Part shown: in pieces, positions 12,747 through 15,190 of the stretch
Layout of the letters: each line of letters opens with the position of its first letter
Numbering within the stretch: position 1 is the first letter of the stretch
DNA from: Bdellovibrionales bacterium
Lineage (GTDB): Bacteria > Bdellovibrionota > Bdellovibrionia > Bdellovibrionales > UBA1609
DNA: 64,000 nt
NCBI GenBank assembly: GCA_965199825.1
Contig: OZ241329.1
Location: 1,632,001 to 1,696,000 of the forward strand
Direction of reading: 5' to 3'
The notes under the pieces: model-generated
Seen by the model: only the letters and a program-made list of their open reading frames with translations
Databases searched by the model: none
What the model was told of the DNA's origin: nothing
Translations under genes and position numbers: made by a program

Positions 12747-12910
12747 TCACCATTTTTTTGTTGGCTGCGTTGGCGGATCCCGTACCACCGGTAAAAAAAG
12801 AAATTCCGGTGGGTGCTCGACCAGATCCAAAAATTCAAATTAAAAAATTAGAAAAGTCGGTGGATAAAATCCTGATTTGGAAAAATAAGCTTGAAGGATT
12901 TCATTGGTGA
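12743..12910 (+). CDS. Small putative exported protein (55 aa; not in ORF track)
   Basis: ATGA overlap with previous stop; MITIFLLAALADPVPPVKKE...EGFHW*. Confidence 0.45.
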   Translation: MITIFLLAALADPVPPVKKEIPVGARPDPKIQIKKLEKSVDKILIWKNKLEGFHW

Positions 12911-13254
12911 TTGAGCTTCGATTTTAGATATGTCGAAATCTCAGTCCGGCCATAAATCCTTTGAAGTAACTCAAAGCCCTGAGCGCCCATAAAATCCTCA
13001 ACCGTTTGGCGAGATTGGTCATGCTCAGCAAAGACTTTATCAAGACGGTAGGAGTGGCGGCAAGCCGGGGTTTGAGCCACCACCTGATTATCACAGATAA
13101 TGCGGATCGGGAAAATGCAAAACATGAGATCATTGAATACGTCTTTAGAGTAGCACGCCGAACTACTTTGAATTTGTTGCGGATTAAAAACTTCGACTTC
13201 ACCAAATTGTGTGGCGCTAGCAAAAAAACAAATTATGAGTTGAACCAAAATCAT
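12901..13254 (-). CDS. Small secreted 4-Cys protein, paralog 4
   Basis: Signal peptide; C..C..I.IIC...VVAQ...C..FM..QGF pattern shared with neighbours. Confidence 0.75.
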   Translation of the reverse strand: MILVQLIICFFASATQFGEVEVFNPQQIQSSSACYSKDVFNDLMFCIFPIRIICDNQVVAQTPACRHSYRLDKVFAEHDQSRQTVEDFMGAQGFELLQRIYGRTEISTYLKSKLNHQ

Positions 13255-13272
13255 CGGATCTCCTGGGTAAAA

Positions 13273-13635
13273 TTAATTCTTTCGATTAAAAGTTAAGAAA
13301 TGAATCTGGGTGGTTGGATTCAAAAGATATTTATAGGATTGATCCAACACAAAACCTTGATCAGTCATAAACTGGTGAATGGCTTCATAGGATGTGTCGA
13401 CCTCTTCTGATTTGCGAAAAATATTAAGGCCTTCGGAACAGGCATTCACCTCGGCCACCACAGTCTCATCGCAAATCAGTTCGATCGGCATTAAGCAAAT
13501 TTGTCGATCCACGAGTACGCAGTTGTTTGAGGCAGAGAGTCTCTGCTGATCGATCACACTTACAATTCCCAGATCGAGCCCGTAAGCGGTAAGCGATTTA
13601 AGAAAGATCGAAACGATGATTAAATAGAATTTCAT
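13273..13635 (-). CDS. Small secreted 4-Cys protein, paralog 3
   Basis: VSVIDQQRLS...C...C..PIELIC...VVAE...C...FM..QGF..DQ. Confidence 0.8.
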   Translation of the reverse strand: MKFYLIIVSIFLKSLTAYGLDLGIVSVIDQQRLSASNNCVLVDRQICLMPIELICDETVVAEVNACSEGLNIFRKSEEVDTSYEAIHQFMTDQGFVLDQSYKYLLNPTTQIHFLTFNRKN

Positions 13636-14004
13636 TTAGTCTTTGGTGACGGTCATCACTCTGTACGCCGCGCCATATCGAAGGGCCTTCGAATTAAGAT
13701 AAAGATCTTGATCAATTTTAAAACCGTTGGAACGAATGAAATCTTTTGTGGTGGCCCAGGAAAGCTCTGCGTCCCGCCTTTTACGTGAATTGCCAGAGTA
13801 TGCGGAACATTGTTCGAGTTCCGCCACAACTTTATTTCCACAAGCGATAGTGATTTTTTCACCGCAATAGGGGGACGCTGTAACGATACAGCTTCTTGCT
13901 TGAGACAAAACGGCTTGATCTAAAACATGGACTTCAAGGCCCAGCGCCGCTTCGCAAGTAAAGACGATCAGAAGAGACAAAAAGTTTACAAGAGATTTGT
14001 TCAT
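13636..14004 (-). CDS. Small secreted 4-Cys protein, paralog 2
   Basis: AAGGAG RBS before ATG 14004; VHVLDQAVLSQARSC... Confidence 0.8.
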   Translation of the reverse strand: MNKSLVNFLSLLIVFTCEAALGLEVHVLDQAVLSQARSCIVTASPYCGEKITIACGNKVVAELEQCSAYSGNSRKRRDAELSWATTKDFIRSNGFKIDQDLYLNSKALRYGAAYRVMTVTKD

Positions 14005-14096
14005 TGGGAGCTGCTCCTTAGATTTCGGAAACCTATTGCAAGATATAATCCCAAGATGCGCCCCATAAATGTTTTTTATTAATCTTGCTACCGACT

Positions 14097-14453
14097 TCAA
14101 TTTTTTATGAAAGTGATAAGTGGGACTTTGCCGTTTTTCCAAATTAAAAATTTAAGTGACTGATCAACCTCAAATTTCTCTCGGTGCATGAACGCCGTGA
14201 GAGTTGAAATGGCGACAGAGTGTTGTTCTGCAGTTTTATTTCTAAAAAAAGTTGTACAGCCCATAATCTCGGCGGTGACTCGACCCCCGCAAAACAGTTG
14301 AATTGGATCTCCGCAATCTCTGACATCAAGAATTAAACAAGATTTTGCCTGAGAGAGATTTTTTTGATCCAAAACATGGACCTTTGAAAAGTCCTGAGCT
14401 TGGCTTAAAATAATATTAGAAAAGATGAGAAAATTTACGAAAGTCATGAACAT
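14097..14453 (-). CDS. Small secreted 4-Cys protein, paralog 1
   Basis: AGGAGG RBS; VHVLDQKNLSQAKSC... Confidence 0.8.
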   Translation of the reverse strand: MFMTFVNFLIFSNIILSQAQDFSKVHVLDQKNLSQAKSCLILDVRDCGDPIQLFCGGRVTAEIMGCTTFFRNKTAEQHSVAISTLTAFMHREKFEVDQSLKFLIWKNGKVPLITFIKN

Positions 14454-14673
14454 CGAGGCCTCCTAGCAAGGAGGTTTAAGGCTTAAAATTTTTGTTTTCT
14501 AAGGATTTTTACTGCTCATCCAATAAAAACCAGTTTGTTTAGTTGTTATCGTAGCATCGGTAACATGCTCAATGCTCTTTTGACTGGATCTAATACGTCG
14601 ACTTGGTTTCTCTCGAAGGTCCTTCTTTACATAACAGAATTGTCTTAATGAATTTTTTGCCTTGATTTCATTC

Positions 14674-15124
14674 GTGCTCGGAAGAGGACTTGTTGTTCAC
14701 GGAGCTGCTCGTGCCGCTCCTCCACAGACGGGGAAGCCGCTCGTCAGCCATCGTGGCTGCCGCATCTTGCCGAATGCTTCCTTTGGTCGCATCCAACAAG
14801 ACGACGCGACTTCTCTTCAAGTCCTCTTCTTACAATGCTGTGCGATTGTTATTTGAATTTGTTGGTTTAATTTTTCTTTTGTTTTTTTGGTGCTCGGAAG
14901 AGGACTTGTTGTTCACGGAGCGGCTTGTGCCGCTCCTCCACAGACGGGGAAGCCGCTCGTCAGCCATCGTGGCTGCCGCATCTTGCCGAATGCTTCCTTT
15001 GGTCGCATCCAACAAGACGACGCGACTTCTCTTCAAGTCCTCTTCTTACAATGCTGTGCGATTCTTATTTAAATTTGTTGGTTTAATTTTTCTTTTGTTT
15101 TTTTGGTGCTCGGAAGAGGACTTG
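14674..15124 (-). repeat. tRNA-linked tandem repeat, 216-bp period (about 2.1 copies); each unit ends in the tRNA-Leu 3' end
   Basis: GTGCTCGGAAGAGGACTTG starts at 14674, 14890 and 15106; the two full units differ at 4 positions. Confidence 0.95.
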
Positions 15125-15190
15125 AACCTCCACACCCTTTCGAGCACAGGCTTCTGAGACCTGTGTGTCTACCAATTTCACCATCCGAGC
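15104..15190 (-). tRNA. tRNA-Leu(CAG)
   Basis: Reverse complement GCTCGGATGGTGAAATTGGTAGACAC...CTCAGAA...GGTTCAAGTCCTCTTCCGAGCACCA; long variable arm. Confidence 0.96.

Follow-up and report, generated by a model that had tools for sequence, protein, structure and literature searches.

Short repeats placed behind stable RNA genes have been known in E. coli since 1978 as TLRs, and their function is still unknown. According to the available text of PMC8144298, these repeats lie behind a tRNA or rRNA gene, carry an 18-19 bp copy of the end of that gene, and number 22 copies. The same text, as far as it was available, describes no antisense arm, mobility or retargeting of TLRs, and the literature that we searched, in which few subscription papers were covered, contained no account of the unit family reported here, of retargeting, or of antisense arms in TLRs. 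In the accessible part of bioRxiv 2024.07.17.603846, raised mobilome coverage was reported at tyrT/rttR, and RNA-gene signals were ascribed to RNA/DNA hybrids rather than to circles.

Genomic islands and prophages that cross over in the T-loop of tRNA genes constitute a second comparable system. As presented in the available portions of Islander (PMC4383910) and bioRxiv 2020.11.02.365908, they share with the unit studied here an intact tRNA gene plus a direct, displaced 3′ fragment, a T-loop junction, filled and empty sites, and tandem arrays; the unit differs from them in being about 0.2 kb long, in being devoid of an integrase, in having an antisense arm, and in having a tail that is not borne by the element, so that one unit serves many tRNAs. 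In this part of its description, Islander rejects islands shorter than 2 kb (PMC4383910). When the unit was considered as a tRNA-targeting island, the tRNA and the 3′ fragment were found, and neither an integrase of its own nor an attP specific for a single tRNA was found.

Folded single-strand recombination sites are known from integron attC and the CTX phage attP, where a strand-biased hairpin joins inverted site copies, and the ends of IS200/IS605 contain a short segment that matches the target or pairs with it. Compared with these systems, the present unit has the T-loop of the tRNA as its target and is accompanied there by a duplication of 21 bp, and no IntI, Xer-site or Y1 partner has been shown for it. 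In the locus described below, which belongs to a phylum distant from that of E. coli, the TLR layout is accompanied by comparative signs of mobility, namely a fixed T-loop junction, a duplication of host sequence, sites both filled and empty, and an antisense arm following its target.

Organization of the repeat array behind tRNA-Leu(CAG)

The window (the whole stretch of 64,000 nucleotides that was analysed) contains a tRNA-Leu(CAG) gene at 15104..15190, which is the host site; this gene and all parts of the array lie on the minus strand. The last 21 nt of the gene, from C56 to CCA (15104-15124), constitute the first copy of a direct repeat, and an inverted-match search showed that its T-loop/T-stem segment (15113..15126) is matched by the antisense arms. 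Unit 1 (14888-15103, 216 bp) consists of an A-rich spacer of 58 nt that is unstructured in the window (15046..15103), a 14-nt antisense arm that is the exact complement of tRNA positions 54-67 (15032..15045), a conserved folded core of 123 nt (14909..15031), and a second copy of the 21-nt tRNA tail (14888..14908), identical to the tRNA-Leu end with CCA intact and able to pair over 12 bp with the arm. Within the core lie a long helix (14979-15019), a short helix (14958-14978) and a distal hairpin (14917-14936). Unit 2 (14672..14887) has the same order, with its spacer at 14830-14887, arm at 14816-14829, core at 14693-14815 and a tail at 14672-14692 that ends in CGA. A tandem-repeat search returned a period of 216 with 2.1 copies over 14674-15124, and the exact 14-nt inverted match between 15032-15045 and 15113-15126 was found again for the arm of unit 2. 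The preliminary description had recorded the 216-bp tandem, the antisense counterpart of the T-arm, and a tRNA end repeated over 21 nt, with CCA in the proximal and CGA in the distal unit, and all three were confirmed, the last by comparison of the units. It had also counted four differences between the units; those four were recovered, but the total becomes five once the change from CCA to CGA in the far tail is included. Two changes in the core of unit 2 are predicted to weaken its distal hairpin from -20.1 to -13.9 kcal/mol.

A third, decayed copy was detected at 14487..14668, with 105 matches to the unit over 186 columns (score 113 versus 55±6.6, equalled in 0 of 300 shuffles). This copy is AT-drifted (G+C 38% versus 59%), its predicted fold is weaker (-22 versus -64 kcal/mol), and no recognisable tRNA tail was found in it. 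With two intact copies and one decayed copy, the array falls within the one to five copies per locus that characterize TLRs. When contigs from sequencing runs were inspected, contig depth over the repeat was raised in two runs, either of which is possibly the source sample (41.8 versus 28-30 in the flanks in run X1; 28.6 versus 8-14 in run X2), and the distal tail was also present in a divergent strain (run X3). The raised depth and the presence of the tail in the divergent strain speak against an assembly artefact. No circle or element joint was found in the contigs of four sequencing-run sets.

Like the E. coli TLRs, as far as these are covered in the available text of PMC8144298, the unit stands directly behind a tRNA gene, occurs in tandem copies, and ends in the end of the tRNA (18-19 bp there, 21 bp here); its arm lies 58 nt from the tRNA end. 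The tyrT 178-bp repeats had been named as an analogue, and this analogy proved closer than stated, as inspection of the K-12 tyrV/tyrT repeats revealed that they too contain a T-arm copy in antisense orientation, which stands, as in the window, 67 nt away from the arm of the tRNA and closes the fold. The E. coli RtT RNA (RF00391) differs in that its core could not be aligned with the present one, and a search of this genome with RF00391 gave nothing at E≤1. A covariance model of the unit, R1 (built from 6 seeds, which match it by construction), scored four E. coli units at 10-11 bits, via the outer stem only. At gathering score, Rfam returned only tRNA and tmRNA; four further matches, at E 1-3, were at chance level.

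Four tandem paralogous open reading frames of 117-168 aa are located directly behind the array (12901-14453, minus strand). They are 25-32% identical to one another, have four invariant cysteines and hydrophobic N-termini, and had no match in Pfam. Reading frames of 64-155 aa that overlap the repeat were set aside as a consequence of its make-up.

Folding and covariation of the unit

The fold of the unit was more stable than that of shuffled sequences (z of -6.4 for 216 nt and -7.4 for 163 nt), and 0 of 200 shuffles were equally stable. In an alignment that had been fitted to R1, double changes were seen in 38 of 39 pairs, and 87% of cells were paired, compared with about 42% when the alignment was slid. 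When an unfitted alignment of 18 sequences was used, the closing stem and two inner helices were recovered, and 27 of 32 pairs covaried. Covariation across homologues, which the preliminary description had suggested as a check, was thus observed with both alignments. The first hairpin of the preliminary description lies outside both the predicted and the conserved fold, and the bases concerned sit in a longer, covarying helix of 15 bp (14979-15019). Closing stems of 12 bp were found as described, but the tail leaves 9 nt beyond the stem; an overhang of ACCA alone needs 5 weak extra pairs that are not kept in relatives.

Among the cells of the long helix, 171 were G-T and 8 were A-C, which points to the tRNA-sense strand as the one that folds. 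This bias is compatible with RNA as well as with single-stranded DNA. Of 46 short apical loops that were scored, 20 were triloops and none was UUCG, and GNRA loops were common among the copies. GNA-type triloops favour DNA, and the triloop counts lean weakly toward DNA over RNA.

Distribution of the family

BLAST of the unit against 60 relatives gave 0 matches, and the family was detectable by motif and covariance model only. R1 matched 33 of 109 genomes of the family (at least 145 matches, with at most 26 candidates scored per genome) and 20 of 151 genomes of the phylum. From a subset of these matches, 90 loci were retrieved that contained 123 hits, 121 of them distinct. As many as 86 of the 121 were the first unit behind a tRNA called by ARAGORN, and 24 tRNA types were represented; another 15 had no called tRNA upstream, and, judged by eye, all of these except L058 were located at a contig start or behind a tRNA-like or tmRNA-like end. 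Most of the hits other than the 86 were tandem copies or lay at contig ends. A 17-nt motif was found in 33 of 301 genomes; three of the loci examined stood behind tRNAs, and one genome (G233) had two copies without a tRNA call. Seven further hits of this motif, all in genome G006 (L036-L042), were rejected because they belong to another structured repeat, about 90 bp long and situated away from tRNAs, that is unrelated to the unit. A 23-nt pattern had 1 match in a genome-contig collection, 0 and 1 in metagenomes, and 0 in two viral-contig scans; the family was unmatched in phages and plasmids.

In the genome under study (2.84 Mb, 5 contigs), a copy of the core was found behind tRNA-Pro(CGG), 58 nt from the tRNA and 82% identical over 130 nt. 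Its arm of 13 nt is specific for Pro and its Pro tail is degenerate; a search for the same core with swapped tRNA ends at other tRNA genes of this genome had been proposed in the preliminary description. More distant units with matching arms were present behind tRNA-Asp, tRNA-Met, tRNA-Gln and the tmRNA.

The tail and the antisense arm follow the host tRNA

Among the 63 copies with a tail of at least 10 nt, the tail started at C56 in 54 and at positions 57-58 in the other 9. The first 18 nt of the tail were identical to the tRNA in 49 of 85 homologues. Spacer length varied from 0 to 175 nt; the right junction was fixed. The preliminary description had raised the possibility of a tiny element integrated at the tRNA site, and this notion was supported with one amendment, which is that the tail on both sides is the host tRNA's own and not carried by the element.

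The arm was examined over 85 of the 86 first-unit rows. Tested against its own tRNA, it matched at positions 56-62 in 78-85 of the 85 copies, and the number of matching copies was 60 at position 65 and 26 at position 69. The arm fitted its own tRNA better than other tRNAs in 83 of 86 cases. Moreover, in a comparison of 21 pairs of copies, each pair from one genome and with cores that were 90% or more alike (three genomes in all, so that the pairs are non-independent), the arm agreed with its own tRNA at every one of the 20 T-loop/T-stem positions that differed. At loci such as L057 and L159, tail, spacer and arm form a near-perfect fold-back.

Variant ends were also seen. Some cores end in a tRNA tail of just 4-10 nt, followed by other DNA (L130, L136; L172, L173, L176, L184), and two loci of genome G203 share the DNA after the tail but have first 7 nt that correspond to the tRNA of each locus.

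Indications of movement among tRNA genes, gain or loss, and decay

Cores compared across genera were 59.1% identical when they stood behind the same tRNA type and 58.9% identical when they stood behind different types. The nearest core was located at the same tRNA type in only 9 of 86 cases, and three pairs at different tRNAs had cores that were 98.5% identical. By these measures, the cores are grouped by genome or host lineage and not by tRNA. In genome G224, one spacer-plus-core was found behind the tRNAs for Met, Asn and Ser (GGA, GCT and TGA), and in every case the host tail stood on both sides. In three pairs of filled and empty sites (L169/L193, L171/L190 and L122/L144), the flank after the second tail was the same as the flank after the empty tRNA; these pairs record a gain or a loss between 21-bp repeats that start at C56, and do not by themselves give its direction. 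The site of the L122/L144 pair is tRNA-Trp-secE, which was filled in 2 of 6 genomes of genus g18, and the tRNA-Gln loci of genus g62 were filled in 9 of 30 cases. Among tRNA-Trp orthologues in genus g3, the element ranged from intact to remnant.

What was observed, then, is a core whose right end abuts C56, tails on both sides that are host-derived, an arm that tracks positions 56-62, filled and empty orthologous sites, and decay. We consider it probable that the units are a gene-less, folded, non-autonomous mobile insert that duplicates the tail of its host tRNA and is retargeted between tRNAs by an enzyme supplied in trans. This assessment covers mobility with retargeting; each chemical step proposed below is graded lower.

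In genome G193 (L144:1230-1554), two partial cores were seen upstream of tRNA-Trp, duplicated along with the 5′ part of the tRNA. Genes listed near elements encode a CD-NTase-like protein (L123:1234-2286), a methylase-Mrr fusion (L084:1428-3104) and a RelA/SpoT-domain protein (L087:2098-3147).

Evaluation of a role as host RNA

A strong fold and strand-biased G-U pairs would also be expected of an RNA that is useful to the host, be it a structured small RNA made by read-through from the tRNA or an arm that pairs with the pre-tRNA and tunes its maturation. In the window, no terminator was predicted in the spacer between tRNA-Leu and the unit, and nascent pairing of the arm with the tRNA was predicted to be nearly equal in energy to the cloverleaf (-34.1 versus -33.4 kcal/mol). 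Some copies are situated within tRNA-Trp-secE or tRNA-Gly-tuf gene runs, and in the available text of PMC8144298 transcription and processing are described for the E. coli rrA/B/F TLRs, as is binding of Hfq and CsrA in vitro. However, in 50 of 85 copies the spacer that separates the tRNA from the arm contained a terminator-like hairpin (13.1 expected from shuffles), and in the window the predicted pairing probability of the arm was 0.83 with its own tail and 0.03 with the tRNA; the maturation switch envisaged in the preliminary description is disfavoured on both counts. A tRNA-like, CCA-ended RNA, which it had also envisaged, is disfavoured by arm-tail pairing that fades after position 65 and by a distal tail that ends in CCA in only 30 of 85 copies. 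Given, in addition, the patchy presence of the units, their tandem pile-ups and decay, and the hopping of cores among tRNA types, a host-useful RNA appears unlikely.

Search for a mobilising enzyme

Among 150 of 157 downstream open reading frames, one integrase fragment and one rve-domain transposase were identified, and neither a reverse transcriptase (RT) nor an HUH enzyme was present. Y1 transposase was absent from genus g3 (0 of 4), G224 and G017, which are among the genomes richest in copies, and so a REPIN/RAYT or IS200/IS605 non-autonomous element was rejected, despite 17 weak Y1_Tnp (RAYT-like) matches on contig C1 of the genome under study (G000), one of them adjoining tRNA-Val. Cas1 and IS110 were found in 0 of 5 element-bearing genomes each, and a casposon or IS110 guide-directed element was likewise rejected, as was a retron msr-msd, there being no adjacent RT among the 150 downstream reading frames or the 8 of the window. 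The presence of Y1, RT, Cas1 or IS110 did not track that of the element. Tyrosine recombinases were found in 5 of 5 element-bearing genomes; this count is weak support, because the family also matches all 14 control genomes. The genome under study contains just two tyrosine recombinases (303-306 aa) and a 177-aa frame. Its sole RT match lies within a 1291-aa open frame on a 12-kb contig (G000:C2:1384-1863, plus strand).

The RT counts bear on movement through an RNA intermediate, in which the transcribed unit would be reverse transcribed from a primer at a nick in the T-loop by an RT from elsewhere. Such a route would account for the fixed right junction with a spacer of variable length and for the target duplication, is compatible with the G-U bias of the sense strand and the many GNRA loops, and could draw on the RT found in 18 of 33 element-positive genomes (28 of 76 negative ones). 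Nevertheless, RT was absent from the single-contig genomes G203, G017 and G036, which hold 17, 8 and 3 copies, and none was found beside the elements; copies preceded by a terminator would be expected to be poorly transcribed, and arm tracking is unexplained by this route alone. We regard an RNA intermediate as distinctly unlikely.

A classical minimal integrative element, in which the attP of a 216-bp circle is a tRNA tail of its own and an island or phage integrase inserts the circle at the T-loop, would agree with the tRNA plus displaced 3′ fragment of the T-loop crossover class (as given in the available text of PMC4383910), with the filled and empty pairs, and with the tandem arrays. At one locus, moreover, two copies 5 kb apart bracket an integrase fragment (L048:1625-1909). 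This route may allow re-insertion at the same tRNA. As a general explanation it is improbable, since near-identical units at different tRNAs are flanked on both sides by host and not donor tails, and cores are not grouped by tRNA. The last alternative, that resident repeats are homogenised by gene conversion between tRNA loci and their arms perfected by hairpin template switching, with no dedicated mobility, is very improbable, for although the grouping of cores by genome, the fold-backs at L057 and L159, and a mobiliser search that came up empty all agree with it, it requires a core at every tRNA beforehand, and it is opposed by the junction fixed at C56 and by clean empty sites in close relatives, and leaves the conserved, covarying fold unexplained.

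Proposed mechanism and relation to E. coli TLRs

If the units are indeed a mobile insert served by an enzyme in trans, the following steps can be proposed. The tRNA-sense strand would fold, likelier as single-stranded DNA than as RNA. The arm would then pair with target positions 56-62 and thereby set the right end of the core at the 55/56 bond, where one strand would be joined by the enzyme. The first candidate for this enzyme is a T-loop tyrosine recombinase acting in trans, because the tracked stretch is 7 nt long and this is the sole candidate class present in all five probed genomes. Fill-in synthesis could duplicate the tail; the arm could be rewritten when the strand folds back and is copied, or by repair inside the stem. 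The tandem in the window may reflect either re-insertion or unequal recombination involving the 21-bp repeats.

A broader proposal can be offered tentatively, as a possibility that we do not favour at present: the units may represent a widespread and so far undescribed class of self-programming, protein-less mobile DNA, with an arm that is rewritten for each tRNA, a class which takes over a recombinase of the host or of an island at the T-loop, uses the tRNA tail as the repeat of its arrays, and sometimes brackets cargo genes, with E. coli TLRs as fossil or domesticated members. A mobile unit would account for the E. coli TLRs, which have long lacked an explanation, as well as for the short duplications of tRNA ends that island finders discard for want of an integrase. 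It would also turn an annotation curiosity into a testable case in which a rewritable DNA arm recognises the target.

Further repeats in the same genome

The tRNA-Asp unit recurs 4.2 kb downstream (G000:C1:2209312-2214030, plus strand), inside a 453-bp direct repeat of 87% identity that brackets open reading frames of 735 and 320 aa. Behind the tmRNA (G000:C1:1422900-1424500, minus strand), three related structured units alternate with small open reading frames in a cassette-like arrangement, the tmRNA unit recurring twice with reading frames in between. One of these frames is of 115 aa and one of 90 aa; the latter presumably encodes a protein resembling a BrnT-type toxin. Another repeat, of about 116 bp in three copies, is palindromic to the end of tRNA-Arg(TCG) (G000:C1:1967632-1967970, plus strand), and related pieces were found at tRNA-Arg(CCT) and near 2550450. 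Finally, an 11-nt motif is present in 32 copies on contig C1, and small palindromes that follow several tRNA genes contain it as well.
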